DNA from: a virus
Taxonomy: Duplodnaviria > Heunggongvirae > Uroviricota > Caudoviricetes
DNA: 46,788 nt
Strand: one strand, 5' to 3'
IMG/VR virus record: IMGVR_UViG_2896607866_000013
Positions 24,815 to 46,788 of this stretch are shown piece by piece. Positions within the stretch are counted from its first letter, which is position 1. The number at the start of each line of letters is the position of its first letter. The notes under the pieces were generated by a model. The model made no database searches, was not told the origin of the DNA, and saw only the letters and a program-made list of their open reading frames with translations. Both the position numbers and the translations under genes were made by a program.

Positions 24815-24818
24815 CGCT

Positions 24819-27512: not shown

Positions 27513-27526
27513 GGGAAAAATAAGTC

Positions 27527-27603: not shown

Positions 27604-27616
27604 AGGGTACAGATAA

Positions 27617-27693: not shown

Positions 27694-27702
27694 TATGTGA
27701 TA

Positions 27703-27778: not shown

Positions 27779-27827
27779 GCGCGCAGAATAATAACGTTAC
27801 GGAATTAATACTGCAATCTCATCCGTT

Positions 27828-28877: not shown

Positions 28878-28971
28878 AGATCAATAAGCACTTCTCTGAT
28901 AGGCTCATACCGCTTTTGCGCAAAGCAGATGGGCCTGAGGTTTGCTTGTGACCCCAACGCATGAGCAGATG

Positions 28972-29000
28972 GCTGGTGGGTGCCCCTAACACCCACCAGC
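28972..29000. repeat. Perfect 11-bp inverted repeat (7-nt loop) upstream of the methylase gene
   Basis: GCTGGTGGGTG-CCCCTAA-CACCCACCAGC; no U-tract on either strand. Confidence 0.6.
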
Positions 29001-29011
29001 CGCCCATTTAC

Positions 29012-29042
29012 CACAAATAAAAAAGCCTTCACTGCGGAAGGC
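29012..29042 (-). terminator. Intrinsic terminator at the stop of the small post-Q ORF
   Basis: GCCUUC-CGCAGU-GAAGGC followed by UUUUUUAUUUG on - strand. Confidence 0.55.
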
Positions 29043-29226
29043 GTCTGTAACAACCGAACTGATAGTCTGCCAGACCCGCCATAACCAGCTGGGTCAGTAT
29101 TAACTGGCAGCGTTCGCGTGAAAGGTAAGTATTCTGCGCAATCTCCCCGACTGTCGCCGGTTCGGTGACGCTTAATTCATTAAACACCACTCTGGCGGTT
29201 TCTGTCATATCCTGCTGTTTCAGCAT
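29029..29226 (-). CDS. Hypothetical small protein (about 65 aa), first ORF after tR'
   Basis: ATG at 29226 with AAGGGA SD (MLKQQDMTETARVVFNELSVTEPATVGEIAQNTYLSRERCQLILTQL...); HTH-like by composition only. Confidence 0.45.
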   Translation of the reverse strand: MLKQQDMTETARVVFNELSVTEPATVGEIAQNTYLSRERCQLILTQLVMAGLADYQFGCYRRLPQ

Positions 29227-29348
29227 GTCTTTTTCCCTTTTTCGGTTAACGTGACACACCAATAACTCTTGTCGAAAAAGCCAGCAAGCTGAAAGACAGG
29301 TATTCACCGCCACCAGCACGTTTACTGTACTGGACCGATTTCAGCCAT

Positions 29349-29373
29349 AAAAAAACCCGCTCGCGGCGGGTTT
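29349..29373 (-). terminator. tR'-like intrinsic terminator about 70 nt downstream of Q
   Basis: AAACCCGC-CGCGA-GCGGGUUU followed by UUUUUUU; position matches pR'-qut-tR' of lambdoid late control. Confidence 0.6.
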
Positions 29374-29441
29374 AAGCTGTGTGGCGAAGTAACCACTCTT
29401 AACATACTGACATACTTTTTGCGGACCGCACTAATCATTTT

Positions 29442-29822
29442 TTACTTTTTTAGCAGCCAGTCGTCCATCTCCAGTCTTACCCCCAGCACAGACAAACATC
29501 CGTCAATAAACCCTTCGGCTATCTGCATCTCAATTCGTATTGCTTTTTCGCTTTTCTTTCTCGTCCTGGCTATCTGTCTTTTTGATATTCGCAACAAATA
29601 ATGAGCAATGAGAAGCGAATACTCCTCAGGTTTTTTCTGCTTCAGACGAGCAAGACAGTTTTCAATGATAAGTCCGTCATCATCGCAGCAGGCCGGACGT
29701 GGTTTAGTGGCAGATGGTAAAAGTCCTTTGAATCCGGCAGCGATCGGAGAATAGTCCACCCCGGTGTTACCACTTGCAGCCCATGCCCCCCAGCGTTCAA
29801 GAACCATCTGAATATCACGCAT
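29442..29822 (-). CDS. Q: Late antiterminator Q (QuuD/phage 21-type short Q)
   Basis: ATG at 29822: MRDIQMVLERWGAWAA...PACCDDD... matches recalled DLP12 QuuD N-terminus. Confidence 0.75.
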   Translation of the reverse strand: MRDIQMVLERWGAWAASGNTGVDYSPIAAGFKGLLPSATKPRPACCDDDGLIIENCLARLKQKKPEEYSLLIAHYLLRISKRQIARTRKKSEKAIRIEMQIAEGFIDGCLSVLGVRLEMDDWLLKK

Positions 29823-29839
29823 CAACTTTCTCCACAAAA

Positions 29840-30835
29840 TCAGGACAGCACACCAATCGCCAGCGCGCGATCGATAAAACGAAATATCAGCTCCAGTTGG
29901 GAACCATACTTCTCTTCAAATGCCACGGTATCCGCATGCAGTTCGTCATGGTGTTTTCTGCACAAAGGCAACACAAAAAGGTCATGCGCTTTTGTACCCA
30001 TTCCACCCTGACCATGACCAATCAGGTGATGAGGATCGTCGGCTGGCTTACCACAACATGCACACGGCTGCGTCTTAACCCAGCGCGTGTACTTTTCATT
30101 AACCCAGCGGCGACGTTTTGGGCGTAACATAAAAGACTCCGGCGACTCCGGATCCACTTTCAGCGCCAGCACCTTTTTCGCCTTATCCTGGATGATGCTG
30201 GTGGCAGGAACCGAAGGCACAAGGTCACTTTCCCGGGTGACAGACGGCACAACAGGCTTCGGTAATCTCAGTGCCTTACGGGCTGCACTTTCCGGTAAGG
30301 CATCCGCCAGGTCATTACGAATCAGCCACCAGCACAGTTCCGGCATTGTCACAACGTGACTGTCATCAAAACCAAGATCACGGCGCACAACAGACAACAC
30401 CCAGCGGGCACAGTTATCCGTTGCCATTGCTTCCAGCCGTTCCGTGAACTGGTCACGGAGAAGATTGTCACAGTGCCAGCACAGACGGATTGCGCCTGGC
30501 GCGTGCCGCATTGTGGTCATGTTCTCGCTGTGCCAGTCGGAATGAGGCCACTGACAGCCCTTTTCACGAAGTAACCAGCTCTCAAGGCATTCCACGCCAC
30601 CAGCACGACGGATCACCGCCTCATGGCGGAACACGGCCCGAACGGCAGGATCATCCGCCAGCGGTTGTGATGCTGCCGGAACGGCACCGCTGGCGAAAGA
30701 TGAATAACGTTCCGGCTCAGGCTCCAGCAGGACACGCCCCTGCATAAACAGGGGCATCAGCTCTGAACCTGGCCTGAACAATACGATCCCCATACGCGGG
30801 GCAATTTCAGGGGTCAGTAGTGCTCTCACGGTCAC
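29840..30835 (-). CDS. DUF968-like protein with HNH-like Cys/His motif (YdfU-like)
   Basis: 331 aa; C-terminal CACCGKPADDPHHLIGHG...PLCRKHHDELH; next to Q as ydfU is next to quuQ in Qin; alternative ATG at 30793. Confidence 0.55.
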   Translation of the reverse strand: MTVRALLTPEIAPRMGIVLFRPGSELMPLFMQGRVLLEPEPERYSSFASGAVPAASQPLADDPAVRAVFRHEAVIRRAGGVECLESWLLREKGCQWPHSDWHSENMTTMRHAPGAIRLCWHCDNLLRDQFTERLEAMATDNCARWVLSVVRRDLGFDDSHVVTMPELCWWLIRNDLADALPESAARKALRLPKPVVPSVTRESDLVPSVPATSIIQDKAKKVLALKVDPESPESFMLRPKRRRWVNEKYTRWVKTQPCACCGKPADDPHHLIGHGQGGMGTKAHDLFVLPLCRKHHDELHADTVAFEEKYGSQLELIFRFIDRALAIGVLS

Positions 30836-30836
30836 C

Positions 30837-31646
30837 TCAATGAACGGTATCGAGCAGCTTTAACAGCTCAGGGAATCGGGATTCGAAGAAATGCGGCTGC
30901 GTCTCGCGCGGATTTGCGGGACTGGTGATGTTCTTGCCGAACATGCAGCCTTTCGCTGTCAGCGACCAGAATTTTTTGATGTTGTTAATCGCGGTACGGC
31001 TGTATCGTTCGCGCTGCTCGACGATCCCCAGCTTCACCATCTGGTGATATGCCTGATTAGCCGTCAGGCGGATACCATACTGTTTCAGCAGTGCACTCAG
31101 TGACAGTGTCGGGCGACTTGAGCCATCGTGTGCATCAGCAGGAGCATCAATGGCATAGCGTGGTGCCAGATTCGGTAAGCCAACAGCCTCCTGGAGTTTC
31201 TGACAGGCACCAAGCACAGATGAGTTAGACAGGTTTAATTCCCGACGCATAAAGTCCAGCAGAATCACACCAGCCTGCATCTTGTCAGCAGCCTGTCCGG
31301 ATAATTTTTCCGGTGTGCTGGTTACCATGTCGAAAGTACGGATCACCTTCAGATGGAATGACGGGCTGATCCACATTGCATAGGCATACACCAGTTCCTT
31401 GCAGACATAAGTTCCCCGTTCATTTCCCCCATGAATCACACTCACCGGGTCAACACCCAAATTCTGGGTGTTGGTCAATTCATGAACAAGTTCAACAGTT
31501 TGTTGGCTGGAAAGAAACTTTCCTGGCTCCTTGGTTCTGGCATTTGCACCAGATGCTACTGCTGCGCGATGTAGATCGTTCAGGCTGTAACGCCCATAAA
31601 CATCACGACGAACTTCAATACCATCAATGACCATCAGATTATTCAT
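30837..31646 (-). CDS. KilA-N domain protein
   Basis: ATG at 31646 with GGAGAA SD; N-terminal MNNLMVIDGIEVRRDVYGRYSLNDLHRAA... typical of KilA-N. Confidence 0.55.
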   Translation of the reverse strand: MNNLMVIDGIEVRRDVYGRYSLNDLHRAAVASGANARTKEPGKFLSSQQTVELVHELTNTQNLGVDPVSVIHGGNERGTYVCKELVYAYAMWISPSFHLKVIRTFDMVTSTPEKLSGQAADKMQAGVILLDFMRRELNLSNSSVLGACQKLQEAVGLPNLAPRYAIDAPADAHDGSSRPTLSLSALLKQYGIRLTANQAYHQMVKLGIVEQRERYSRTAINNIKKFWSLTAKGCMFGKNITSPANPRETQPHFFESRFPELLKLLDTVH

Positions 31647-31665
31647 ACTTCGTTTCTCCTCTTGA

Positions 31666-32055
31666 TCAGGCGGCTGCACCCGCCGTTTTCTCGTACTTAC
31701 TGATAGTGATCTCGACCTTCCCTTTCGGGATAACCGGTCCCCACTCCACCAGCATTCTTTTCACCTGACTGTCGTCTTCCCACACACCCGCGTGGGTCAG
31801 GGCGTCAAACAGCGCCTTGTTATAGTTGTCCAGATCGCGGATCCTGTTATCCGGAGGAAACAACACGATCTCCACTGAAGCAGGTGCCGACGTTGGTTTC
31901 GGCAGACGACGTAACTGCTCAATGATGGCGGCACACGCCGCGCTCTGAAATTTTCGCCCCGCCTCGCTTATCAGGCTCTTACCAGCAAATGCCCCTTTGT
32001 TGGGGTGTCGCCAGTACGTGTTCACGCTGGGCGGAAAAGGCAGTATTAGCTTCAT
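31666..32055 (-). CDS. rusA: Holliday junction resolvase RusA
   Basis: 129 aa; PPSVNTYWRH...RDLDNYNKALFDALTHAGVWEDDSQV matches RusA catalytic Asp motifs. Confidence 0.8.
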   Translation of the reverse strand: MKLILPFPPSVNTYWRHPNKGAFAGKSLISEAGRKFQSAACAAIIEQLRRLPKPTSAPASVEIVLFPPDNRIRDLDNYNKALFDALTHAGVWEDDSQVKRMLVEWGPVIPKGKVEITISKYEKTAGAAA

Positions 32056-32705
32056 GCCACCATCTCCCTGACCAGTTTTTCCGCCTGCTGGCGAACCTGC
32101 GCCAGAAATGCCTCACCACATGCCTCAAGTTCATCGCGCCCGATGTAGCTGATTGCCGGTCCCTTCCAGGTCTTGTCGAAAACAGCAATAGCACCAGCGA
32201 AGAAAGCACCTGTTGGCACCTGCTTTTCGTCTTTCGGGATAAACCAGGCAGGCAGTTCAAAACCAATACGCCCGCGAATAAAAGCAATATGATCTGCATC
32301 TTCCGGCCACCACACTTCGCTGGTGGCAGCTTTGATCAGGAAAACATAGCGCCCGCCTTTATCACGCATGGCACTGGCATGCTTCATGATGTAACGCATG
32401 CCGGTGATGTATTGCCCCTCATGCTGACTGGCGCGGCTGTACGGGGGATTGCCAAAGGCAGCACCTTTAAGCTCCGCAAGACGTTCTGACCAGTCATGCG
32501 CCAGCGCGTTGTCTTCCGCCGTGTAATACGCGGCACATTTGGCGTTATCACCGTCAGTGAACAGATCCAGAACAAACGGACCAAACAAGGTGTTAATTCC
32601 CCAGAAAATGTTGTCCGGCGTGCGCCACTGATCGCCCACTTCCTTCAGTTCATGGGCTGGTTTGTTCCGCAGTTCTACCAGCGCCTGGCAATATTTATTA
32701 CTCAT
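32052..32705 (-). CDS. Phage Dam-type N6-adenine DNA methyltransferase
   Basis: 217 aa with FGNPPYS motif; no cognate nuclease. Confidence 0.65.
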   Translation of the reverse strand: MSNKYCQALVELRNKPAHELKEVGDQWRTPDNIFWGINTLFGPFVLDLFTDGDNAKCAAYYTAEDNALAHDWSERLAELKGAAFGNPPYSRASQHEGQYITGMRYIMKHASAMRDKGGRYVFLIKAATSEVWWPEDADHIAFIRGRIGFELPAWFIPKDEKQVPTGAFFAGAIAVFDKTWKGPAISYIGRDELEACGEAFLAQVRQQAEKLVREMVA

Positions 32706-32797
32706 TAAGCCCCCACGTAAAAAGCATCCGCAATGTCTCCGGAAGTACAGCCCGGATGGGCTTCAATGAATTTCTGAACGTCATTTAACAGACTCAT
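32705..32797 (-). CDS. Candidate 30-aa ORF coupled between O-like gene and dam
   Basis: ATG 2 nt after O-like stop, preceded by AGGGGGTGA SD; its TAA overlaps dam ATG (TAATG); MSLLNDVQKFIEAHPGCTSGDIADAFYVGA. Confidence 0.3.
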   Translation of the reverse strand: MSLLNDVQKFIEAHPGCTSGDIADAFYVGA

Positions 32798-32799
32798 GA

Positions 32800-33783
32800 T
32801 CACCCCCTGAATCCTTCCGGGATCTGGCTGTAGTCCACGTTGTCGTAACTGGCTTTGAAGTACGGGTCCTCGCGTCTGGCTGCAGATACCGCAGGAACTT
32901 CCCAGGATTCTTCGAAATGACGATCCGGACCAAAGAACGTCGACGCCTGCTTCACGAACTGGGTACCGGTATTTCCAGAGACACGCACCCAGGCGGCATA
33001 GCGTTTCACACCGTCGAGCATGGTTTCGGGTGTCACACCTTCCCTGATTCGGGCTTTCCAGGCTTTAAAAGCGGCGGATTTTGAATTACCACCAGCACGT
33101 TTGGGATATTCCTGCCAGGCCTGTTCAAATTCCGGTGAATATTCCTGTCTGGCAGAACGCGCTGGTGCAGACGCGTCAGCGGATGCGCCAATAGTGTTTT
33201 TAGTCTCCGTTGTAATCTCTGTAGTAATCTCTGTATTTGTATCAACATTCGGCGTATCCCCTGTTCCGTTATGACGTCGGGGGGTGTTCCGTTTTAACGT
33301 AATAGTTGTATCGCTGATTGCATTATTGCTGTTACTTTCTGGCGAAACAGAAGAAGGTGTGGTGATGGCCGCAATTGCCTGTGGGTTGATCCCGACAAAC
33401 AAAATATTGCTGCATTTCACCCCATCGAGCATTTCCACCGTGCGTAAATCCAGAGTAATAAACCCTGCATCGCGCAGACGCTTCAGCGCATCTGCGGTTT
33501 CCCTTTTCCCGAAACCAAACTGCTCAGCAAACGCCTGGTAGCTTCTTTGCAGTTTGTCGCCCTGAAAACGCTTGCGATATCCCAGCAACGCTCCGGTGTG
33601 CTCATCCCTGACCTCTGTCGGGCGGTACCAGTAAACGATCTCTGAAAGCAGAGCGATAGCCGTCGCATCCGGACGCCCACTGGGTAGTCGAATATATTTC
33701 CACCAGGTCGCAGGTGTAACATTGCCGGAAATATTAATTTGACCAATAGCCATAACTTCCGGTGTGGGGGCGTAACGGCTCAT
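32800..33783 (-). CDS. Replication initiation / replisome organizer protein (O-like)
   Basis: 327 aa; position of lambda O after the cro/CII region; internal EITTEITTETK repeat encoded by direct DNA repeats; no P-like gene follows. Confidence 0.5.
   Translation of the reverse strand: MSRYAPTPEVMAIGQINISGNVTPATWWKYIRLPSGRPDATAIALLSEIVYWYRPTEVRDEHTGALLGYRKRFQGDKLQRSYQAFAEQFGFGKRETADALKRLRDAGFITLDLRTVEMLDGVKCSNILFVGINPQAIAAITTPSSVSPESNSNNAISDTTITLKRNTPRRHNGTGDTPNVDTNTEITTEITTETKNTIGASADASAPARSARQEYSPEFEQAWQEYPKRAGGNSKSAAFKAWKARIREGVTPETMLDGVKRYAAWVRVSGNTGTQFVKQASTFFGPDRHFEESWEVPAVSAARREDPYFKASYDNVDYSQIPEGFRG
33203..33238. repeat. Tandem 12-bp direct repeats inside O-like gene (candidate ori iterons)
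   Basis: TCTCCGTTGTAA / TCTCTGTAGTAA / TCTCTGTATTTG in tandem; lambda ori iterons also lie inside O. Confidence 0.35.
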
Positions 33784-34019
33784 ACAACCTCCTTCCGCAG
33801 CATGAGAATTGTGTAGCCACGCGCAGGTTGTAGTCTGGCTTTTGCATCAATAGTAAGCGTTGCAATTTTTCGGATATGAAGATAACCAGCTCTTTCCAGT
33901 GCCAGGGTTTCCCTGAATATCGCTTGCTTAGAACAACAGCAGAAATCAGCAAGCACCTGATGATCAATAACTCTCTCGCCTTCACCGTCTGAAGAACCCG
34001 ACATCAAAACACGCAACAT
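33780..34019 (-). CDS. Hypothetical small protein (79 aa) upstream of O-like gene
   Basis: ATG at 34019 (alt 34004), stop overlaps O-like start (ATGA); no strong SD. Confidence 0.3.
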   Translation of the reverse strand: MLRVLMSGSSDGEGERVIDHQVLADFCCCSKQAIFRETLALERAGYLHIRKIATLTIDAKARLQPARGYTILMLRKEVV

Positions 34020-34107
34020 AATCAGGCGCTGAATCGGGTTATCGAAAGCACATCCGCACACAAACTGAAAACAGTTCACGCCACACCTCCCAGACGCTTT
34101 GAAGTGG

Positions 34108-35276
<1,169 letters not shown>

Positions 35277-35345
35277 TGGAGCACCTGTGTTGTTCTGAGG
35301 TGAGCATATCACCTCTGTTCAGGTGGCCAAATTCAGTGTGCCACT

Positions 35346-35552
35346 TCACTTAAACATTTTTCCGGAGCAAAAGGCTATAAGCGGCATACTGACGCGGTAA
35401 TTACGGCCCAGCGGTTCACAAATCACCTTCTGACATTCACGGTCAACCAGGCTAACACGTAGAACATGCCCTGCAGGTGTGGTGTACCACTGACCCGGAC
35501 GAGGACAACGGAAAGTCTGATTGGTAAACCGTTTGAAAATATTCCGGATCAT
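35346..35552 (-). pseudogene. Small gene sharing the MIRNIFK.FTN leader of the Rha array, 3' end split by IS911
   Basis: ORF stop codon TGA is the first 3 nt of the IS911 end; without the IS the frame continues 6 codons (..KMFKRLGGVA*). Confidence 0.5.
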
Positions 35553-36421
35553 TTACGCCCCCTTACCTCTGAAGGGTTCAGCGACAAATTTATGAGGCAG
35601 GCCAGTGCCGAAGCATCATTAATATAGTCATACAAGCTAACAGCCAGCGGAGATTCGGCTTTTGCCAACATAGGATAAAGCTGCTGCAGCCAGACCTGAT
35701 GAATTGATGAAATGTAGGAATAGAGAACGCTGGCGTTATGTGCAACATCGCTCAGTACAGAGGGATTTGAAAGCTGTTTCTCCATCTGGTTAAAGGCATT
35801 GATGTATGCCTCTTTGAACTGGGCAGCACGTTTACCCGTGAAGCCCATGGCAAGAAACGCAAAACCGTCGCGGGTGATTTGGTAACAAGGGAGTTTGCGG
35901 CCTGATGCGTCGGTGTATTCACTTAACACAAAATTGTGTTCAGTAAATTCAGCGGAACATTCGAGGTTTCTAATTCTATCTAAAACCCGCTCATGCCGTT
36001 TAGTAAAGTAATTAGCTACTGCAAGAGATGTGGTGACAACGCGACCATTGATAATCGTGATTTCAGGGTGAGATTGGGTTGGGAGAGTAGTCATGGTGAC
36101 AGCCCCTATGTTGAATTCAATGAACTCACCACCAAGGCTTTCCACGACCATATAGGTGGTGAGACGTACAGGGGTGGAAATACCGGTCAACATAGAACCC
36201 GGCCCAACCGAAGTTGGCCCTGCACGCCCCACCATAATTTGGGCGTAACGATGCTCATGACACGAAAAAACCGCATGAGCGCGGTTGTGCTCTATATTGA
36301 ATTTCGGGTTTCCACGCCCGGCACCCGCTTTATAAGGTGCCTGAACAGTGTAACGTCCCGGAATGGCAGAATCAATGTGCTGGTGGCGATTGGTAAACAG
36401 TTTGAAAATATTCCGGATCAT
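35549..36421 (-). CDS. Rha-family phage regulatory protein (copy 1 of tandem pair)
   Basis: 290 aa; C-terminal half has Rha signature VTTSLAVANYF.KRH..VL..IR.LE...GRKLPCYQITRDGFAFLAMGFTGKRAA.FKEAYINAFNQMEK. Confidence 0.65.
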   Translation of the reverse strand: MIRNIFKLFTNRHQHIDSAIPGRYTVQAPYKAGAGRGNPKFNIEHNRAHAVFSCHEHRYAQIMVGRAGPTSVGPGSMLTGISTPVRLTTYMVVESLGGEFIEFNIGAVTMTTLPTQSHPEITIINGRVVTTSLAVANYFTKRHERVLDRIRNLECSAEFTEHNFVLSEYTDASGRKLPCYQITRDGFAFLAMGFTGKRAAQFKEAYINAFNQMEKQLSNPSVLSDVAHNASVLYSYISSIHQVWLQQLYPMLAKAESPLAVSLYDYINDASALACLINLSLNPSEVRGRK

Positions 36422-37569
36422 TTACGCCCCCTTACCTCTGAAGGATTCAGCGACAAATTTATGAGGCAGGCCAGCGCCGAAGCATCATTAATATAGTCAT
36501 ACAAGCTAACAGCCAGCGGAGATTCGGCTTTTGCCAACATGGGATAAAGCTGCTGCAGCCAGACCTTGTGGATTACCGACAGGTGGGAGTAAAGCACGCT
36601 GGCGTTATCTGCGGCATCGCTCAGCGTGGATGGCTTTGAAAGCAGTTTTTCCATCTGGTTAAAGGCATTTATGTATGCCTCTTTGAACCGGGCAGCACGT
36701 TTACCAGTGAAGCCCATAGCAAGGAACGCGAAGCCATCGCGGGTGATTTGATAGCAAGGTAGTTTGCGGCCTGTGCAATCGGTGTAATCACTCACCGAAA
36801 AATTGCGGGCAGTGAATGATGCGGAGCATTCAAGCGTGCGGATCTTTTTCAGTACATCGTCATGACGTTTGGAGAAGAAGTTGGCAACAGCTAGGGATGA
36901 AGTAACAGCCTGACCATCAACGATGGCAATTTCAGGTTGAGTGAGGGTTGGGAGAGTAGTCATAGTGACAGCCCCGGTAGTCAGTTTTTTAGAAAACTCA
37001 CCACATGGGACGCCAATCACAGAGGTGGTGAGACGTACAGGGTTGGCGTTACCGGAGACTACCGAACCCGGCCCGACCGAAGTCGGCCCTGTACGCCCCA
37101 CCATAATTTGGGCGTAGCAATGCTCATGACACGAAAAAACCGCATGAGCGCGGTTATGCTCAGTAATCAATTTCAGGACGCCAATCCCGGCACCCGCTTT
37201 ATAAGGTGCCTGAACAGTGTAACGTCCCGGAATGGCAGAATCAATGTGCTGGTGGTCCTTCACACTCAACAAAATCACGCCTGAATTTCCACAAAGGACT
37301 AAAGCACTCATGCTGGTAGTCTTTGCGAAGATAGATAACGCGCTGTGTTTCTGGCTCCCAACGAATAACATGGACATAAAGCCCTCTTCCGTCACGAAAC
37401 CAGCGGTTAAGTTCCTGCACAACTCGCCCCCCACAGTCAGGTAAAGTTCTCTGTGGTTACTTACAGCCAGGTGATCTGGTAATCTGCATTCATGCCGTAA
37501 CAACAGGTGTTCAGCGACACTGACCACCAGCTGTTGCGACAAACGGTTATTTGCCGTTAAACTGTTCAT
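36418..37569 (-). CDS. Rha-family phage regulatory protein (copy 2, with unique ~93-aa N-terminal extension)
   Basis: 383 aa; C-terminal 290 aa paralogous to copy 1 (~870-bp tandem DNA repeat); ATG immediately after the CII-like stop. Confidence 0.6.
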   Translation of the reverse strand: MNSLTANNRLSQQLVVSVAEHLLLRHECRLPDHLAVSNHRELYLTVGGELCRNLTAGFVTEEGFMSMLFVGSQKHSALSIFAKTTSMSALVLCGNSGVILLSVKDHQHIDSAIPGRYTVQAPYKAGAGIGVLKLITEHNRAHAVFSCHEHCYAQIMVGRTGPTSVGPGSVVSGNANPVRLTTSVIGVPCGEFSKKLTTGAVTMTTLPTLTQPEIAIVDGQAVTSSLAVANFFSKRHDDVLKKIRTLECSASFTARNFSVSDYTDCTGRKLPCYQITRDGFAFLAMGFTGKRAARFKEAYINAFNQMEKLLSKPSTLSDAADNASVLYSHLSVIHKVWLQQLYPMLAKAESPLAVSLYDYINDASALACLINLSLNPSEVRGRK

Positions 37570-38117
37570 GCGTTAGTTTCTCCACAGACACAAAACGCCA
37601 CGACGCCCGGAGCTGCACACTCGCGGGCGTCACTCTTTTCTGGAGCGCAGAAGATTTTGTAGACCAGTGCTGCATGCTCCTGGAGCTTCGAAATTGACAG
37701 ATACAACTCATCATTAATTGCTGTCTGCTCGTGTGGCTCCACGACCCCATCTTCGATTGCCGAACGAATCTGCTTTGAGTAATTCCCGATCTGTTCGATG
37801 ACTTCCAGCAGGCGCTGGTTTATATCGGCGTTCTCTACTTCCTCAATTTCAGGAAGCGATACGAACACCCCACCAGCAGACTGTGCGACAGCATCCGCAA
37901 TGTAGTGAGTGCCAGCAGCACGCTGTAAAATCATTGCCCATCCCAGCGGGAAAATCTGATCGCCATCTGCACGAAGGCGGTTGAATAAAGCGTTCTCTGT
38001 TACATCCAGCCACTCAGCAGCTTCAGCGTAACCCCCCGGCAACGCCGCGATAGTTTTTCTGACAGCTTTCACGTACCACTCAGGCTGTTTTTCCACTTTC
38101 CAGTGATGATTACCCAC
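37566..38117 (-). CDS. CII-like regulatory protein (tentative)
   Basis: 183 aa directly downstream of cro; weak resemblance to recalled phage 186 CII-type proteins; family call is inference. Confidence 0.35.
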   Translation of the reverse strand: MGNHHWKVEKQPEWYVKAVRKTIAALPGGYAEAAEWLDVTENALFNRLRADGDQIFPLGWAMILQRAAGTHYIADAVAQSAGGVFVSLPEIEEVENADINQRLLEVIEQIGNYSKQIRSAIEDGVVEPHEQTAINDELYLSISKLQEHAALVYKIFCAPEKSDARECAAPGVVAFCVCGETNA

Positions 38118-38467: not shown

Positions 38468-39160
38468 ATGAACATAGGAAACCGAGTCAGACAACTTCGC
38501 CAGGCGAAGAACATGAAAATCGCCGATCTCGCTGAAGCAATAGGAGTGGATGCGGCGAATATCTCACGCCTGGAAACAGGTAAGCAGAAACAATTCACTG
38601 AACAAGCCCTGAGTAATATTGCCAGGAGCTTAGGTGTTGATATTGCTGATCTCTTTACCTCAGACTTCAAAAGTAATACTGTATGTAAAAACAGTATTAG
38701 TGAGGATGTTGCGCAGGTGAAGGATGTATTCCGTATTGAAATGCTGGATGTCAGTGCCAGTGCGGGAAATGGCCTTATCCAGGGCGGTGATGTCATTGAT
38801 GTGATTCATGCCATTGAATACAGAACTGATAATGCTGTATCGATGTTTGGCGGACGGCCAGCAAATCACATTAAAGTTATCAACGTTCGTGGGGACAGTA
38901 TGTGTCCAACCATTGAGCCAGGAGATCTCATCTTCGTTGATGTCAGTATCAATCAGTTTGATGGAGATGGTATCTATGTATTTGGTTTTGATGATAAAAT
39001 TTATGTCAAACGACTGCAAATGATACCTGACAAACTACTGGTGATTTCTGATAACCAGATTTATCGTGAATGGGGAATTACCAGCGAAAATGAACACCGG
39101 TTTATGGTCTTTGGAAAGGTCTTAATCAGCCAGTCACAAACCCTTAAGCGACACAATTAA
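38468..39160 (+). CDS. cI: CI-type prophage repressor (HTH_XRE + S24 LexA-like peptidase domain)
   Basis: 230 aa; N-terminal HTH; C-terminal RGDSMCPTIEPGD (Ser) and KRL (Lys) autocleavage dyad. Confidence 0.85.
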   Translation: MNIGNRVRQLRQAKNMKIADLAEAIGVDAANISRLETGKQKQFTEQALSNIARSLGVDIADLFTSDFKSNTVCKNSISEDVAQVKDVFRIEMLDVSASAGNGLIQGGDVIDVIHAIEYRTDNAVSMFGGRPANHIKVINVRGDSMCPTIEPGDLIFVDVSINQFDGDGIYVFGFDDKIYVKRLQMIPDKLLVISDNQIYREWGITSENEHRFMVFGKVLISQSQTLKRHN

Positions 39161-39180: not shown

Positions 39181-39205
39181 AGCCACCCGAAGGTGGCTTT
39201 TCATT
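39181..39205 (+). terminator. Intrinsic terminator after cI
   Basis: AGCCACC-CGAA-GGTGGCT followed by TTTCATT. Confidence 0.6.
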
Positions 39206-39209: not shown

Positions 39210-39270
39210 ATCAAATTGCATATCTCGCAACAAAAATACTTGCATAATGCGCAACTTCATTTTATCTTTC
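39210..39270 (+). promoter_or_regulatory. OL operators and putative pL
   Basis: Two perfect TTGC-N7-GCAA sites (39216-39230, 39240-39254), same consensus as OR; TTGCAT-17-TATCTT promoter-like elements facing right. Confidence 0.5.
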
Positions 39271-39862
39271 TTTCCAGACCAACAAACAAGGTACTAACAA
39301 AATTTGGTTGTAACACGGCGTATGGCACATGCGTCGTTAGCGGTCTGGGGACGTTAAAGGGGACAATCCACTCCTTGCTCGGGCAAACAAACCAGGTAGC
39401 CGGAATGTGCAAGTCAATGATGATGCTGATAAGACGCCTAACCAGCGTGGCGATTCGGTTTGACGCCTGGGAAGAGACCAGGGTGCAACGATGAGGGCAT
39501 TTATGGAACCGCGACAAAGTATGGTGCCGTAACTGGCTAAGTGCTCTCAGCGTTGTGGTAATCCGCGAAATGGCGCGGCGGTAAGTATGGCGGGGTTATT
39601 CCTTCCCCGTTGAGGACACCGGGTTGTCAGGTTGACCATACGCTTAAGTGACAAGCCCACCACAACAGCCACTGCTTTGGCGGTACCAGTTTGTACACTT
39701 GCTTCCGGCTGGTACCGCTCTTTTTACAAAACAGAGAAGAGCATCACCGGACGACGGGCTCATAACCCAATCCACCCGGGCGGCTGCCACCGCAGGTGTT
39801 CTTCTCTGTTTTGTGGAGAAACCAACCGACCTTGCAGGGTCGATATGATGAGGAGCAGCAAA
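39271..39862 (+). other. Long structured 5' leader of the early-left operon (no N-like ORF)
   Basis: ~590 nt, GC-rich; terminator-like hairpin 39681-39726; imperfect 16-bp stem-loop 39726-39814; GAGGAG SD at 39851. Confidence 0.4.
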
Positions 39863-40225
39863 ATGGCTAGCGAACGCAGTACTGATGTGCAGGCATTTAT
39901 CGGGGAGCTGGACGGCGGCGTATTTGAAACCAAAATCGGCGCTGTTCTCAGTGAAGTCGCTTCAGGTGTGATGAACACGAAAACCAAAGGGAAGGTCTCG
40001 CTCAACCTGGAAATCGAACCGTTTGATGAGAACCGTGTGAAAATAAAACACAAACTCTCATATGTTCGTCCGACTAACCGCGGGAAAATTTCCGAAGAAG
40101 ACACCACCGAAACGCCGATGTATGTCAATCGCGGTGGTCGCCTGACTATTCTGCAGGAAGACCAGGGACAATTACTGACTCTTGCCGGTGAACCTGACGG
40201 AAAACTCCGCGCAGCAGGTCATTAA
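39863..40225 (+). CDS. Hypothetical protein (YfdP-like by position)
   Basis: 120 aa from ATG 39863 with GAGGAG SD; immediately upstream of the YfdQ-like gene. Confidence 0.55.
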   Translation: MASERSTDVQAFIGELDGGVFETKIGAVLSEVASGVMNTKTKGKVSLNLEIEPFDENRVKIKHKLSYVRPTNRGKISEEDTTETPMYVNRGGRLTILQEDQGQLLTLAGEPDGKLRAAGH

Positions 40226-40290
40226 TATCGTTCTTAATTAACTGATTATTTATCTCATCACTGAATATCTTAATATAGTGAGGACTTATT

Positions 40291-41112
40291 ATGTCTCAGA
40301 ACTTAGACGCAACCGCAATTAATCAAATCCATGCCCTTATTTCTGCTCAGGGTGTTAATGAAATTATCAGTAAGATTGGTGCCGATGCTGTGGCATTGCC
40401 TGAGAATTTCCGCATTCATGATCTGGAAAAATTTAATTTAAATCGCTTCCGTTTCCGTGGTGCGCTTTCCACTGCCAGCATCGATGACTTTACCCGTTAT
40501 TCTAAAGATCTTGCAGATGAAGGCACCCGCTGCTTTATCGATGCTGATAATATGCGTGCCGTCAGTGTGCTTAACCTGGGTACTATTGATGAACCAGGTC
40601 ACGCAGATAACACCGCCACTCTCAAACTGAAAAAGACAGCACCGTTCTCTGCCCTGTTGTCTGTTAACGGCGAGCGTAACTCCCAGAAATCACTGGCAGA
40701 ATGGATTGAAGACTGGGCCGACTACCTTGTGGGCTTTGATGCTAATGGTGACGCCATTCAGGCAACCAAAGCGGCTGCGGCGATCCGTAAAATCACAATT
40801 GAAGCGAACCAGACCGCTGATTTTGAAGATAATGACTTCAGCGGCAAACGCTCCCTGATGGAGTCTGTCGAAGCGAAGACCAAAGACATTATGCCAGTGG
40901 CATTTGAATTTAAATGCGTTCCGTTTGAAGGTCTGAAAGAACGTCCGTTTAAATTACGCCTCAGCATTATCACTGGCGATCGTCCTGTACTGGTTCTGCG
41001 CATTATTCAGCTGGAAGCGGTGCAGGAAGAAATGGCTAACGAATTTCGTGATCTGCTTGTTGAGAAATTCAAAGACAGCAAAGTAGAAACCTTTATTGGT
41101 ACTTTGAGGTAG
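40291..41112 (+). CDS. DUF2303/YfdQ-like protein, C-terminus altered by IS600-like insertion
   Basis: 273 aa; stop codon TAG lies inside the IS left end; without the IS the ORF would continue ~19 codons to a hairpin terminator. Confidence 0.6.
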
Positions 41113-41168
41113 CCTGAGTTTAACGGACACTCCTTCCTGAAATAGAATGGCATCAGAAGGAGCTAATA

Positions 41169-41471
41169 ATGAGCAGAAAAACCCAACGTTACTCTAAAGA
41201 GTTCAAAGCCGAAGCTGTCAGAACGGTTCTTGAAAATCAACTTTCGATCAGTGAAGGCGCTTCCCGATTATCTCTTCCTGAAGGCACTTTAGGACAATGG
41301 GTTACCGCCGCCAGAAAAGGGCTCGGTACTCCTGGTTCCCGCACGGTGGCTGAACTGGAATCTGAAATTCTGCAACTGCGTAAGGCGTTAAATGAAGCTC
41401 GCCTTGAGCGAGATATATTAAAAAAAGCAACAGCGTATTTTGCACAGGAGTCGCTGAAAAATACGCGTTAA
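41169..41471 (+). CDS. IS600-like transposase OrfA
   Basis: 100 aa HTH/leucine-zipper OrfA typical of IS3 family. Confidence 0.85.
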   Translation: MSRKTQRYSKEFKAEAVRTVLENQLSISEGASRLSLPEGTLGQWVTAARKGLGTPGSRTVAELESEILQLRKALNEARLERDILKKATAYFAQESLKNTR

Positions 41472-41506
41472 TCGAACAATGGCGACAACAATTTCCCATT
41501 GAAGCG

Positions 41507-42325
41507 ATGTGTCAGGTATTTGGTGTATCCAGGAGCGGTTATTACAACTGGGTACAGCATGAACCCTCAGACAGAAAACAAAGTGATGAGCGGCTAAAAC
41601 TGGAGATTAAGGTGGCACATATCCGCACTCGCGAAACATATGGAACCCGGCGGCTCCAGACGGAGCTGGCAGAGAATGGCATCATCGTTGGTCGTGACCG
41701 ACTGGCACGTCTTCGTAAGGAGCTAAGGCTACGCTGTAAGCAGAAACGCAAGTTCAGAGCGACTACGAACCCGAACCACAATCTGCCAGTTGCGCCAAAT
41801 CTGCTGAACCAGACGTTCGCTCCTACAGCACCAAATCAGGTCTGGGTGGCGGACCTGACGTATGTTGCCACACAGGAGGGATGGTTGTACCTCGCTGGCA
41901 TCAAAGATGTTTATACGTGCGAAATTGTCGGCTACGCCATGGGAGAGCGCATGACAAAAGAGCTGACAGGTAAAGCCCTGTTTATGGCGCTCAGGAGCCA
42001 GCGCCCACCTGCCGGGCTAATCCACCACTCTGATCGAGGTTCACAGTACTGCGCATACGATTACCGGGTCATACAGGAGCAGTTTGGTCTGAAAACATCA
42101 ATGTCGCGTAAAGGTAACTGTTACGACAACGCTCCGATGGAAAGCTTCTGGGGAACGCTGAAAAATGAGAGCCTGAGCCACTATCGTTTTAATAACCGGG
42201 ATGAAGCCATCTCAGTAATACGGGAATACATTGAGATTTTCTACAATCGTCAGCGTCGTCACTCTCGTCTGGGGAATATCTCCCCGGCAGCCTTCAGGGA
42301 AAAATATCATCAGATGGCTGCTTAA
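41507..42325 (+). CDS. IS600-like transposase OrfB (DDE)
   Basis: 272 aa with integrase-core motifs (HSDRGSQY...). Confidence 0.85.
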   Translation: MCQVFGVSRSGYYNWVQHEPSDRKQSDERLKLEIKVAHIRTRETYGTRRLQTELAENGIIVGRDRLARLRKELRLRCKQKRKFRATTNPNHNLPVAPNLLNQTFAPTAPNQVWVADLTYVATQEGWLYLAGIKDVYTCEIVGYAMGERMTKELTGKALFMALRSQRPPAGLIHHSDRGSQYCAYDYRVIQEQFGLKTSMSRKGNCYDNAPMESFWGTLKNESLSHYRFNNRDEAISVIREYIEIFYNRQRRHSRLGNISPAAFREKYHQMAA

Positions 42326-42508
42326 AAAAGAACAAATGGTAGTGTCCGCTATTGCCAGTACACCTCACTTTCACCGCCTGATTTCATTACTGCAAATGCC
42401 CCTGCGGGGGCATTTATGTAAACATAATTTACCCAATAATCGCCAGATGGTGAGGGCTTCCTTTTACCAGAATTCAGCACAGTGCAACGCATATACGTGG
42501 AGAACAAA

Positions 42509-43045
42509 ATGTCATTTATTAAAACTTTTTCCGGGAAGCATTTTTATTATGACAGGATAAATAAAGACGACATCGATATTAACGATATCGCGGTTTCCCT
42601 TTCAAATATCTGTCGCTTTGCCGGTCATCTTTCACACTTCTACAGCGTCGCCCAACATGCGGTGCTTTGCAGCCAGCTGGTACCGCAGGAATTTGCTTTT
42701 GAAGCGTTAATGCATGATGCAACAGAAGCGTATTGCCAGGACATCCCCGCACCACTGAAACGCTTTCTTCCTGACTATAAACGGATGGAAGAAAAAATAG
42801 ACACAGTAATCCGTGAGAAATACGGGTTACCCCCGGTTATGAGTACACCCGTGAAATATGCCGATCTCATCATGCTGGCAACCGAACGCCGCGATCTCGG
42901 GCTTGATGATGGCTCTTTCTGGCCAGTACTGGAAGGCATCTCTGCCACAGAGATGTTCAAAGTTATTCCACTGTCGCCAGGCCATGCCTACGGGATGTTT
43001 ATGGAACGCTTTAACGAGTTATCGGAGTTACGCACATGCGCATGA
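42509..43045 (+). CDS. yfdR: HD-domain 5'-deoxynucleotidase (YfdR-like)
   Basis: ATG at 42509 with GGAGAA SD; HD motif ...MHDATEAY...; length and position match CPS-53 YfdR (recalled). Confidence 0.6.
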   Translation: MSFIKTFSGKHFYYDRINKDDIDINDIAVSLSNICRFAGHLSHFYSVAQHAVLCSQLVPQEFAFEALMHDATEAYCQDIPAPLKRFLPDYKRMEEKIDTVIREKYGLPPVMSTPVKYADLIMLATERRDLGLDDGSFWPVLEGISATEMFKVIPLSPGHAYGMFMERFNELSELRTCA

Positions 43046-43079
43046 GTCTTTCAACTGAACAACCGCTGGAGGGGTAGCA

Positions 43080-43274
43080 ATGAGCAACTTAATGACAACA
43101 AAACAAGTCGCCGAATTCTGTGGCGTTTCAATATCGACGGTGCTTCGCTGGAACAGCGTAAACAGGAGGACAGGCCAGAAATACAGGCCAGATTTTCCAG
43201 ATCCTGATATTAAATCCTGCTCAAATAAATGGGCATCACGCAAAATATACAGATTTGCTGGAGTTATTGAGTAA
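43080..43274 (+). CDS. AlpA/excisionase-like small HTH protein
   Basis: 64 aa MSNLMTTKQVAEFCGVSISTVLRWNS... ; GGAGGGG SD; near int. Confidence 0.55.
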   Translation: MSNLMTTKQVAEFCGVSISTVLRWNSVNRRTGQKYRPDFPDPDIKSCSNKWASRKIYRFAGVIE

Positions 43275-43840
43275 TGAGAGTTAGCCAAGAGGTGAGATAA
43301 TATCCATCTATGGCACAGAACTAAACATAATCTGACTATATGCTCTGTGCCAAAAACAGATGTTATATCATGTATTGTATGCTCATCCTGCAAAATATAA
43401 ATTCCGCAGATACCCCTTACCTCTGAATATTAATCCACAATGGATGCGACAAAAAAGATTTTGAGTTGGCATCAGGCGAAATATTAATAATTATAATACC
43501 CCATGCACAATGCCATCTGAGTCATCATATCCTGGTCTCTATCAATATTTATCTTGCCATCAGAAAAATCCAACACAAAGAAATGATGAAATTTCGGCGG
43601 AACAACTTTAGAGTAAAAGCAGAAATACTCATTATTCCTTTCATATTGAAAATTAACGTATATTTTTTTAATTTTTTTATTTTCCACCAGGTCCATAAAC
43701 ATTTTATTTAAATCTGACCTTTTACTTTCCTTGTCATCATCTTGAAGCTTAGGATCAAAGTAACGTATTAAGCAGTTTTCAATAATTCTCCCCTCATTAT
43801 CAACATCAATTTCATCCAGTAGAGAGGTAATGACTCCAAC

Positions 43841-44344
43841 TTACTGATAGTGTTTTATGTTCAGATAATGCCCGATGACCTTGTCATGCAGCTCCACCGA
43901 TTTTGAGAACGACAGTGACTTCCGTCCCAGCCTTGCCAGATGTTGTCTCAGATTCAGATTATGTCGCTCAATGCGCTGAGTGTAACGCTTGCTGATAACG
44001 TGCAGCTTTCCCTTCAGGCGTGATTCATACAGCGGCCAGCCATCCGTCATCCATACCACGACCTCAAAGGCCGACAGCAGGCTCAGAAGACGCTCCAGTG
44101 TGGCCAGAGTGCGTTCACCGAAGACGTGCGCCACAACCGTCCTCCGTATCCTGTCATACGCGTAAAACAGCCAGCGCTGACGTGATTTAGCACCGACGTA
44201 GCCCCAATGTTCGTCCATTTCAGCGCAGACAATCACATCACTGCCCGGTTGTATGCGCGAGGTTACCGACTGCGGCCTGAGTTTTTTAAGTGACGTAAAA
44301 CCGTGTTGAGGCCAACGCCCATAATGCGTGCACTGGCGCGACAT
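43841..44344 (-). CDS. insB: IS1 InsB frame (InsAB' transposase by frameshift)
   Basis: 167 aa IS1 InsB sequence. Confidence 0.9.
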
Positions 44345-44538
44345 CCGACGCCATTCATGGCCATATCAATGATTTTCTGGTGCGTACCGGGCTGAGAGGC
44401 GGTGTAAGTGAACTGTAGTTGCCATGTTTTACGGCAATGAGAGCAGAGATAGCGCTGATGTCCGGCAGTGCTTTTGCCGTTACGCACCACGCCTTCAGTA
44501 GCGGAGCAGGAAGGACATCTGATGGAAATGGAAGCCAC
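44263..44538 (-). CDS. insA: IS1 InsA
   Basis: 91 aa [23 protein letters not shown]... zinc-finger/HTH InsA. Confidence 0.9.
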
Positions 44539-45552
44539 GCAAGCACCTTAAAATCACCATCATACACTAAATCAGTAAGTTGGCAGCATTACCCAGTAGA
44601 GAATTTGAAATATTAAAGACCACATTACATTTATTATTCAGAGATATAATCCTTGGATTAAATATACTAAAACAAACAAAAAAATCATTATCGTCATTTG
44701 AAACGCTATACAGCATCTTTGATAAGCCACGGTGAATAAAATCAACAGGGCGCCGATGCGGATGACGTGTATATCCTACGTAATGCACTTCTGTATGAAT
44801 TCCTAAATCAATATAATGTCCGTTTACGAAATCATGAACTGACATCACACATAAATTGCCATTTTCATATTCAATGTAGAGAAACTTCTCAGTTACTCTA
44901 ACATTTGGAGTTACCTTCACTACCCCATTCTGCGTAAACGTGCAAAAGGAATATTTTATCCGAAGCTTTCGCTCTTCTTTGCCAATCAACAGAGTGAATA
45001 CTATATTTTTTGTGAATGGGTTATACCTAGGCTGTTTCTTGGTTGAAAACCTCACTTTTTTTCTTGAACCTAAGAAATAAATAAATCTCTTTTCACAGCT
45101 TTCCCTCGTATATTTTTCCATAATTCTGAGATAGTTCTTTATTATCTTATTTGTTCTTATATCATCAGGAGGATTAATTATCATATCATACCAAATACAA
45201 TCGGTGTTAATGAGATCAATCCACAATGACTTATCGGCTTCTGAGAAAACCACGTTAGAGTTTATAAAATCAAAGTTTCCGCGAGTCATAAAACACTTCA
45301 TCACATTAAAAATCACCTGCACATAATAAATTAAGTAGCAGAAGGTTCGCAAACCCTTGCTTCTGTTTGTGCTATGATATTTTTCATAATTCATCGATTG
45401 GCATCCCTACATCCTTAGTCCCACAGTAACCCAATAAACCATCAAACTCCTGCCGACACCCCAAATACTGAAGCTACCGGTTAACGTAGTCTGGCTAAAA
45501 ACCCAGTACACAAGGTATCCGCAGCGGACTGGCAGATATGATTACGCTCTGG

Positions 45553-46788
45553 CTACGCAAACTGTCCGTTGGAGATTAAGTCAGTACAAGTAACGATCGA
45601 TTCAACCCTCTCCCACCATGCCCAGTAAGCTTTACGCTGTTCTTCTAGATAATCGCTCTTATCATAAACTTGCCATACACCTGGCAGTTTATGACCAAGC
45701 ATTATTTCAGCAATATGAGGAGCAGTAAGATCAGAAAAGTTTGTTCGTGCTGTTCGTCTCAAATCATGAAGAGACCAATGAGGAAATTGATACCCCAAAC
45801 GTCGCCATGCGAACTGCATTAAATTGTAAGGCAGCGACTGCAATGATGTCCGACCAACTGGCTCCCTGCTTCCTTCCTTAGTAAAAAGCATATCGGAACC
45901 GTTGTTCATAGAGATAACGTATTTTATAAGCTCTTCAACCGGTTCAATAATGGGCCGCTTTAGCGGTTCGCCTGTTATGTCCCCAGTCTTATGTCGTTCT
46001 GGTGGTACAGTCCATACCTTATTTATGAAATCAAAATCATCCACCCTAGCAGTAATTAGCTCTGAACTACGGCAACCAAAATGCAGCAATAGTTTAATGA
46101 AGGCTCGGTATTTAGGAACCATTCGAGAACCATCGATCGCAGCATAAAGGATGTTAATTTCATCATGTGTCAGAAACCGTTTTTTCTGACCTTTACGGAT
46201 ATCCATATCTTTACCCGTGATATCCGACAGTGGGCGAGTTTCAATGAGCTTTCTCTTATACGCCCAGACATGAGCCTGCTTTGCGTTAATTAGCAATCGG
46301 TCTACTATTGCTGGAGTCTTGGTGCTAAGAGGCTCCAGGACTTCTAACCAATCATGCAATGTAGCTGCATCGTGAGGGATATTCCCGATTTTAGAGAACA
46401 GGTGCAGCTCAAACGAGCGGAGTATCTGTTCAGAACCTTTTTTATTTTTTACACAATATGCTTCATACCAGGCACGGATCACAGACTCTACCGTCATGGC
46501 TTCAGTAGCTTTTCGTTTTTCAGCCTGCTTGACTAATCGTGGATTGCGGTTTGACTCGAGTTCACCACGGAGACGGATAACTTCTTCTCTGGCCTCTTTT
46601 AATCCAGTTGCCGGGTAAGTTCCGATATCAAGGCGCTCACCTTTCCCTGCCCATTGATAACGATATTGGAACACTACGCGACCTTTCGGTGATACTCTGA
46701 CAGACAGACCATCACGATCGGATTTAACCAAAACCTTATCACGTTCCTTTCCAACGACTGAACGCAACCACGCATCAGACAGCGCCAT
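45553..46788 (-). CDS. int: Tyrosine integrase (P4-type, N-terminal arm-binding domain)
   Basis: 411 aa; C-terminal catalytic region with R...HDLRRT...Y motifs; ATG is the last 3 bases of the window, so the att site is outside the window. Confidence 0.85.
   Translation of the reverse strand: MALSDAWLRSVVGKERDKVLVKSDRDGLSVRVSPKGRVVFQYRYQWAGKGERLDIGTYPATGLKEAREEVIRLRGELESNRNPRLVKQAEKRKATEAMTVESVIRAWYEAYCVKNKKGSEQILRSFELHLFSKIGNIPHDAATLHDWLEVLEPLSTKTPAIVDRLLINAKQAHVWAYKRKLIETRPLSDITGKDMDIRKGQKKRFLTHDEINILYAAIDGSRMVPKYRAFIKLLLHFGCRSSELITARVDDFDFINKVWTVPPERHKTGDITGEPLKRPIIEPVEELIKYVISMNNGSDMLFTKEGSREPVGRTSLQSLPYNLMQFAWRRLGYQFPHWSLHDLRRTARTNFSDLTAPHIAEIMLGHKLPGVWQVYDKSDYLEEQRKAYWAWWERVESIVTCTDLISNGQFA

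Follow-up and report, generated by a model that had tools for sequence, protein, structure and literature searches.

Genes and architecture of the early-left operon

The stretch of DNA analysed here, called the window throughout, is the 46,788-nucleotide IMG/VR virus record IMGVR_UViG_2896607866_000013, assigned to the Caudoviricetes. Downstream of its cI-type repressor gene, on the + strand, the open reading frame (ORF) map shows a cluster comprising yfdP, yfdQ, yfdR and xis, delimited by the yfdP start codon and the xis stop codon (39863-43274) and interrupted by an insertion sequence (IS) element. The initial annotation, drawn from the sequence alone, had described here an early-left module of YfdP-, YfdQ- and YfdR-like proteins with an excisionase, likened to the CPS-53 (KplE1) region of Escherichia coli K-12, and every feature that it claimed is present where it was placed (Table 1). 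In pairwise BLASTP comparisons, YfdP shares 119/120 residues (99%) with its counterpart in K-12 MG1655, YfdQ 270/272 (99%) and YfdR 169/178 (95%, with nine substitutions) with those of K-12, so that the proposed likeness to the K-12 proteins is borne out clearly, at 95-99% identity. The yfdPQR module is thus already known, and the window holds a copy that is near-identical to that of K-12 and damaged by IS elements; about the identity and architecture of this early-left operon we have hardly any doubt.

The individual gene products differ in how much can be read from their families. YfdQ matches Pfam DUF2303 at 309.9 bits (cut-off 26.6), with residues 7-271 covered, while YfdP matched nothing in local copies of Pfam and NCBIfam; an in-frame extension of yfdP up to 39632 is not kept in K-12, the homology beginning at 39844. 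The start of yfdR was placed within a slightly longer ORF because the alignment to K-12 begins at ORF residue 10. Judged by its motif and family similarity, YfdR is a member of the HD-domain 5'-deoxynucleotidase family: its H...HD...D motif residues are the same as in K-12 YfdR, and it matches PHROG 318 (E 1.7e-108), PDB entry 2gz4 (E 2e-13) and, barely over the cut-off of 25.9, Pfam YfbR-like (26.1 bits). The small protein encoded by xis had been called an AlpA-like Xis, of which the excisionase part stands, through PHROG 1553, and the AlpA part does not, Phage_AlpA (PF05930) not being among its matches at E <= 0.01. It shows weak matches to Xis_Gifsy_1 and HTH_17 (in Pfam, HTH_23, HTH_17 and MerR are all sub-threshold). 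TorI was rejected as the recombination directionality factor of this prophage, having no similarity to the xis product. Annotation of this gene elsewhere is uneven, with the RefSeq record of a uropathogenic E. coli (UPEC) leaving it unannotated and the GenBank record of PhiR63_1, a sequenced phage from ECOR13, annotating an antisense ORF of 121 amino acids (aa) there.

The cluster is preceded by an immunity region. Two 16-mers downstream of cI are read as OL operators overlapping pL because the same operator family occurs between cro and cI (38433-38448), and we infer from the sequence that pL overlaps them. Between cI and yfdP lies a gap of 700 bp that a prophage with another repressor has in conserved form, the conservation beginning immediately past the promoter. 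This gap contains a structured leader RNA, described below, and ends in a boxA-like sequence that runs into a long hairpin; the segment 39700-39862 folds at -65.8 kcal/mol (z -4.5), with equally stable shuffles in 0/200, and could represent a nut-like site, a structure resembling a terminator or a target of RNase III. The operon would then read, in order, operators and pL, structured leader RNA, long hairpin, yfdP, yfdQ, the inserted IS600, yfdR and xis. It is with moderate confidence that we take this to be the repressor-controlled early-left (pL) operon of a Shigella flexneri lambdoid prophage with no recognisable N gene. The prophage is lambdoid, is related to Stx-type phages and to PhiR63_1, and in relatives adjoins yjjG. 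The layout of PhiR63_1 is identical (cI, gap, yfdP, yfdQ, yfdR, unknown gene, int), and a UPEC prophage shares this architecture.

Table 1. Coordinates of the features discussed, in positions of the window
Feature	Position	Strand	Remarks
yfdP	39863..40225	+	120 aa; PHROG 204; homologues carry PF27127 YfdP
yfdQ	40291..41112	+	273 aa; DUF2303 (PF10065)
yfdR	42509..43045 (within ORF 42482-43045)	+	178 aa; HD-domain 5'-deoxynucleotidase family
xis	43080..43274	+	64 aa; small helix-turn-helix (HTH) excisionase (recombination directionality factor); PHROG 1553 'excisionase', E 1.2e-33
Structured leader RNA	39316..39482	+	167 nt; four nested helices P1, P2, P4, P6; two pseudoknots
cI-type repressor (HTH + S24 peptidase)	38468..39160	+	Pfam Peptidase_S24 6.5e-19, HTH_3/HTH_26
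Intrinsic terminator after cI	39181..39198	+	7-bp stem, 5 GC pairs, then T-run (terminator scan)
OL-type operators, motif TTGCnnnnnnGCGCAA	39216-39231 and 39240-39255	+	24-bp spacing
Putative pL	within 39216..39268	+	-35 TTGCAT 39240-39245; -10 TATCTT 39263-39268; read from sequence
boxA-like CGCTCTTTTTACAA	39716-39729	+	one pattern match in the window
Long hairpin	about 39721-39820	+	stem ~25 bp; boxA-like CGCTCTTTTTACAA runs into it; just upstream of the yfdP ribosome-binding site
IS600 (IS3 family)	41105..42367	+	same direction as operon; boundaries ambiguous by 1-2 nt
IS600 orfA	41169-41471	+	
IS600 orfB	41507-42325	+	
IS1	43826..44592	-	InsA/InsB ORFs 43841-44538; inserted into low-GC gene between xis and int
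PHROG 7779 gene, 5' part, cut by IS1	44593..45394	-	~32% GC; 342-377 aa when intact
Tyrosine integrase with P4-type arm-binding domain (int)	45553..46788	-	Pfam Phage_integrase, Arm-DNA-bind_3, Phage_int_M
Second IS3-family element	34108-35312	-	orfA 34974-35312, orfB 34108-34947; in replication region
Chi sites GCTGGTGG, n=17	23545..37877	11 on - (phage top strand)	from cos/lysis end to immunity region

Absence of early-left recombination genes and the distant yfdP-yfdQ pair

Between cI and int, every sizeable ORF is accounted for and none is of the exo, bet, gam, kil or cIII type, in agreement with the earlier statement that the region from pL to int lacks the lambda recombination (Rec) and kil genes. 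The nin region showed only RusA and an HNH/DUF968 protein; no protein-by-protein scan was made of the late region. The window contains 17 Chi sites against 2.25 expected, the maximum in 100 shuffles being 7, and 11 of them lie on the - strand, which is taken as the phage top strand from the orientation of the terminase and structural genes. This combination recalls a group of phages described recently. The yfdP, yfdQ and yfdR genes are common early-left genes of lambdoid phages, and LLS, the type phage of that study, lacks both a Rec module and an N homologue and has, for replication, an O-type gene only (Zheng et al. 2025, PMC12315714). Like phages LLS, ST64B and phiNP, the window has the early-left trio of yfdP, yfdQ and an HD-phosphatase gene without exo, bet or gam; in both, no N gene is apparent and Chi is strongly enriched and concentrated near the cos-right end, with the majority of sites on the top strand. 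To judge from its early-left lack of Rec genes and its Chi pattern, the window would belong with these LLS-type phages, from which it differs in being riddled with IS elements.

The module had also been said to stand in place of exo, bet and gam. This is apt for the map position, which is the one between pL and xis/int that lambda gives to exo-bet-gam-kil-cIII, presumably under similar repressor control, but it does not hold as a substitution, as the cluster co-occurs elsewhere with full recombination modules. The two sets of genes have no sequence or fold relationship, and their gene content is entirely different. Phage ArgO145 has the yfdP, yfdQ and yfdR genes plus a complete Rec module, and in the view of the authors of that study this co-occurrence makes it unlikely that the three proteins are recombinases (PMC12315714).

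More distant phages point the same way. A yfdP-like gene lies directly upstream of the DUF2303 gene in 3/3 distant contexts examined, namely the window, a high-GC phage (IMG/VR UViG_2595698798_000001, locus L004) and a third distant locus (L007), where the two genes abut. At L004, positions 2639-7430 carry, in order, a yfdP-like gene, DUF2303, DUF1351, a small ORF, ERF, a small ORF and a YqaJ exonuclease; the YfdP-like protein matches YfdP with an hhalign probability of 98.9%, and the small ORF between ERF and YqaJ is zinc-ribbon-like by a sub-threshold match. From this gene order, the YfdPQ pair appears to be part of a larger early block of DNA-transaction genes, and the conserved pair accompanies recombination genes and does not take their place. 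The gene yfdR is not always linked to yfdP-yfdQ in distant phages (L004, L007) and seems a looser associate.

A structure related to this pair has been deposited. PDB entry 9o7m, titled 'YfdQ Protein', comprises 36 DUF2303 chains, starting from chain C after two other chains, A and B, and was matched by YfdQ with an E of 8e-44 as a single sequence and of 1e-57 as a profile; its sequence maps at 94% to the L004 protein (3068-3892). No YfdP partner was found in the PDB with either the E. coli YfdP profile or the L004 YfdP-like protein, and a literature search on DUF2303, PF10065, 9O7M and recent yfdQ work returned no functional or structural paper. AlphaFold models of YfdQ and YfdP (predicted local distance difference test scores of 77 and 74, respectively) had no meaningful structural neighbours in fold libraries, which do not contain 9o7m, and PADLOC gave nothing meaningful for any protein of the module.

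A structured RNA in the leader

The leader RNA lies between pL and yfdP, outside the 39863-43274 cluster. The fold of 39275-39520 as a single sequence is unremarkable (z +0.39), and the RNA was exposed only by cross-phage BLAST, in which the first part of the leader gave 79-82% matches to unannotated DNA in other phages: P1, between a tRNA gene and ban; D6 and SJ46; and the epsilon15-like phages phiV10, TL-2011b and SPN1S. In an alignment of 34 diverse copies, controlled with slid partners and 500 shuffles, 98.1% of cells are paired, compared to 25-49% in the slid-partner controls, and 12 pairs are altered on both sides, a number reached by 0/500 shuffles. The many G-U pairs indicate that the RNA strand is the one co-oriented with the downstream genes. 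In addition to the nested helices, the P1 loop GCACAU can pair with AUGUGC at 39405-39410 (pseudoknot 1) and the P4 loop at 39440-39443 with 39457-39460 (pseudoknot 2). When run on a MAFFT alignment, RNAalifold chose to pair GCACAU with AUGUGC at long range, at the expense of the local, covarying P1 stem; we take this pairing as a pseudoknot.

A covariance model (R1) built for the RNA finds one copy in the window (39291-39515 matched, core 39316-39482, 167 bits), no copy near pR in the window, and nothing in HK022 or HK639. Rfam 15 gave no match, at E <= 10 in the window and at E <= 0.1 in the P1, D6, phiV10 and SPN1S copies. Several identities were considered and rejected: a tRNA or tmRNA; an RNA like HK022 put or HK639 putL, which the model does not match; and the coding sequence of the overlapping ORFs (39216-39494 on the + strand, 39257-39517 on the - strand), which is contradicted by the compensatory pair changes, the strand-specific G-U pairs and the indels in variable hairpins.

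The RNA is widespread. An invariant 19-mer used for retrieval occurs in at least 120 IMG/VR contigs, model copies are found in related prophages, P1, D6, phiV10 and SPN1S, and the core is present in 1374/5426 complete E. coli genomes, about a quarter; none of the 12 RefSeq matches listed overlaps an annotated feature. Its setting varies. Among 134 copies, 41 lie upstream of yfdP-yfdQ and 11 upstream of a ban-type helicase gene, and about 26 apparently have a tRNA gene within tens of bases downstream, ARAGORN having confirmed tRNA-Arg(UCU) in six of the loci checked. In P1 and D6, the RNA comes immediately after a tRNA-Met(CAU) gene. Of 87 distinct upstream regions, 40 had promoter-like sites on the same strand, whereas the two controls gave 2 and 1; these sites typically lay 50-90 nt before P1 of the RNA. 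Separately, in the operon of P1 and D6 that carries the leader RNA, partial sub-threshold matches to Rfam STnc100 (34-40 bits, the gathering score being 47) lie upstream of tciA (L015 1057-1177, L018 548-668).

The closest known parallel is with the put RNA of HK022 and the putL-like RNA of HK639, likewise promoter-proximal structured RNAs in the early-left leaders of lambdoid phages that lack N. The HK639 record has a single putL-like RNA, after pL, just as the leader RNA of the window is single and confined to the left side, and by eye the two have in common a CGGCG...CGUCG first stem and a GGAAGAG motif. HK022 put, in contrast, measures about 70 nt, has two stem-loops and follows both pL and pR, compared to 167 nt, four helices and two pseudoknots for the leader RNA, which, unlike put, also adjoins tRNA genes and precedes P1 ban. 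We consider the chances about even that it represents a functional RNA class not yet described. That it acts on the transcribing RNA polymerase, as a put-like processive antiterminator that works without a protein, is more doubtful, yet a cis-acting role of this sort is the one that we favour; the linkage to tRNA genes also fits a processed, stable, trans-acting RNA. Were it put-like, the RNA would let transcription from pL pass the leader hairpin and the terminators downstream and so reach yfdPQR and xis, and the same RNA device would serve ahead of P1 ban, which encodes a DnaB-type helicase, and of the tRNA genes of epsilon15-like phages.

Insertion elements and probable decay of this copy

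The element that separates yfdQ from yfdR is IS600. It was mapped against the empty site in the prophage of E. coli UPEC-245U, where both flanks match at 100% identity, and it has a 3-bp target duplication, CTT, at 41102-41104 and 42368-42370, termini of the TG..CA form (TGAGGT...ACCTCA) in imperfect terminal inverted repeats, orfA and orfB with an A6G frameshift motif (AAAAAAG at 41421), and 99.8% identity to the RefSeq-named IS600 of E. coli O145:H28; NCBIfam transpos_IS3 was matched at 334.6 bits. IS600 enters nine bases ahead of the yfdQ stop, so that the last three codons are replaced by two codons and a stop lying partly inside its left end. The altered YfdQ C-terminus noticed at first reading is thereby confirmed from the empty site, the protein ending ...GTLR* in place of ...GTFTA*. 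The residues lost, F272 and the terminal Ala, are each at least 90% conserved in 36 homologues.

The exact 273-aa YfdQ allele was found by protein look-up in six contigs, all named Shigella flexneri, and the exact yfdQ::IS600 junction had no match in contigs representing one genome per species. These S. flexneri contigs occur with and without the neighbouring IS1, and the IS600 insertion is therefore the older of the two. A separate IS600 copy lies within yfdR in a prophage of E. coli O145:H28 RM12581 (L008 5182-7048), from which it follows that the yfdQ-yfdR segment has been struck by IS600 at least twice.

Two further elements interrupt the window. The flanks of IS1 join in the intact UPEC locus with an overlap of 9-10 bp, which is the target duplication; the int-proximal gene cut by it (PHROG 7779) had no Pfam or PADLOC match, intact versions included. 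Beside the second IS3-family element lie a partial replication initiator (33780-34178) and an initiator or DnaD-like protein of 327 aa (32800-33783). Elsewhere in the window, two tandem genes for Rha/Ash-domain regulators, both PHROG 821 (35549-36421 and 36418-37569, - strand), are found where related phages have one.

With three IS insertions, the window copy is rather likely to be decaying or defective. Its function is probably impaired by the lack of yfdS and yfdT, discussed below, together with the replacement of two conserved C-terminal residues of YfdQ; yfdR and xis are set apart from pL by the 1.26 kb of IS600; and the other two elements have struck the replication region and the int-proximal gene.

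Relation to CPS-53 and the DnaA phenotype

CPS-53 has the order yfdP-yfdQ-yfdR-yfdS-yfdT-torI, of which the first three genes are orthologous to those of the window and keep the same order and spacing, with DNA homology over 39844-41105 and 42367-43045. With the K-12 CPS-53 proteins as queries, tblastn gave no match to YfdS, YfdT, YpdJ or TorI anywhere in the window; the directionality factor of the window is an excisionase unrelated to TorI, and its integrase is only 23% identical to IntS. The window prophage retains cI/cro, the operators and the leader RNA, which K-12 CPS-53 has lost by deletion. In K-12, yfdM, yfdN and yfdO are fragments of phage Dam methylase and replication genes with matches at 32439-32895 of the window, and yfdO is fused directly to sequence lying some 20 bp upstream of yfdP. 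This pattern of yfdM/N/O fragments and yfdPQR with no immunity region suggests that CPS-53 is what deletions have left of a phage of this type.

The initial annotation had mentioned an effect of the K-12 yfdQRST cluster on DnaA-dependent replication initiation, and such an effect is indeed published: in K-12, multicopy yfdQRST inhibits initiation at oriC, multicopy yfdQRT or yfdQRS suppresses over-initiation, and YfdR binds DnaA domain I through a patch around Phe46, competing with DiaA and DnaB (Noguchi & Katayama 2016, PMC4776307). Since yfdS and yfdT are absent from the window, this phenotype cannot simply be transferred to it, and for DnaA inhibition, the one phenotype reported, the window copy is probably non-functional.

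Possible roles of the intact module

For an intact module, a role in host takeover directed at DnaA is possible, and we put it forward tentatively, by analogy with K-12. The operon would be silent in the lysogen and, after induction, would serve as a cassette for host takeover and DNA metabolism, where YfdR, helped by YfdQ (probably as a YfdP-YfdQ complex), would damp host initiation or free DnaB-DnaC for the phage origin; Xis would then direct excision with the P4-type Int. This mechanism leans on the data for YfdR and DnaA and on where the genes lie in the operon. Several points weigh against it. The minimal active set in K-12 is yfdQ and yfdR with either yfdS or yfdT, a plasmid with yfdQR only being inactive, and the DnaA effect appears on multicopy supply only, yfdQRST deletion having no replication phenotype (PMC4776307); the gene set of the window falls short of this minimum. 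Moreover, the overlap of pL with the operators has a sequence-only basis, the polarity of IS600 on yfdR and xis is assumed, and a part for YfdP, YfdQ and YfdR in the phage life cycle is itself something that we infer.

One alternative is that YfdP, YfdQ and YfdR form an unrecognised recombination or anti-RecBCD system that replaces exo, bet and gam. They lie where a Rec module would map in a phage that has none, the L004 yfdP-yfdQ pair lies immediately upstream of DUF1351-ERF-YqaJ, RdgC adjoins the cluster in one E. coli relative, and a K-12 yfdQ deletion is weakly sensitive to methyl methanesulfonate (MMS; cited in PMC4776307). Yet L004 and ArgO145 combine genes of the cluster with complete Rec modules (PMC12315714), their folds show no resemblance to those of Rad52/RecT/Erf, exonucleases or Gam, and the 17 Chi sites point to reliance on active host RecBCD and argue against a RecBCD inhibitor, so that this reading appears very unlikely. 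The lack of a PADLOC match bears on another proposal, that the module acts on nucleotide pools or against host defence, with YfdR as a phosphohydrolase of deoxyribonucleoside monophosphates or signal nucleotides and oligomeric YfdQ as a sponge or scaffold, although the PADLOC library holds defence, not anti-defence, proteins. The HD motif of YfdR is intact and its family is annotated as deoxyribonucleoside 5'-monophosphate phosphatase, the 36 deposited chains of a YfdQ homologue imply a large assembly, and an early-operon position would suit such a task; but YfdR's affinities for nucleotides are reportedly far below YfbR's (cited in PMC4776307), no experiment links the module to any defence system, and yfdR is unlinked to yfdPQ in distant phages. 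We regard this as quite unlikely.

The genes could instead be cargo that benefits the lysogen, their low-level expression slowing initiation and aiding tolerance of oxidative damage, alkylation and hydroxyurea rather than lytic growth. K-12 retains yfdPQRST despite its lost immunity region; yfdQ and yfdS deletions are reportedly sensitive to H2O2 or MMS, and multicopy yfdQRST raises hydroxyurea resistance (PMC4776307). The sequences are also abundant, with 10,812 members in the YfdQ 90% cluster and megablast matches to 39500-43400 in 5010/5426 complete E. coli genomes, a count inflated by IS600 copies. The reported phenotypes are weak, however, and in intact phages the genes stand behind operators and a long structured leader and are expected to be off in the lysogen. 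Furthermore, the IS600 insertions tolerated in the S. flexneri operon and in O145:H28 yfdR speak against strong selection in lysogens, and we think cargo of this kind an unlikely explanation.

Implications

Since the yfdS and yfdT genes that it requires are missing, DnaA inhibition, the only published phenotype of the yfd genes, cannot be assumed for the window, and the yfdPQR trio had already been placed in lambdoid early-left operons (PMC12315714). What the locus adds concerns the yfdP-yfdQ pair and the leader. The pair has been kept as a unit of two genes in phages ranging from enterobacterial ones to a high-GC phage, and with a structure of 36 chains deposited, its function may become tractable soon. 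The leader RNA is the part of the locus most worth further attention. Should it be an antiterminator that needs no protein, this would account for the expression of early-left genes in lambdoid phages that lack N, a question left open by the 2025 study (PMC12315714).

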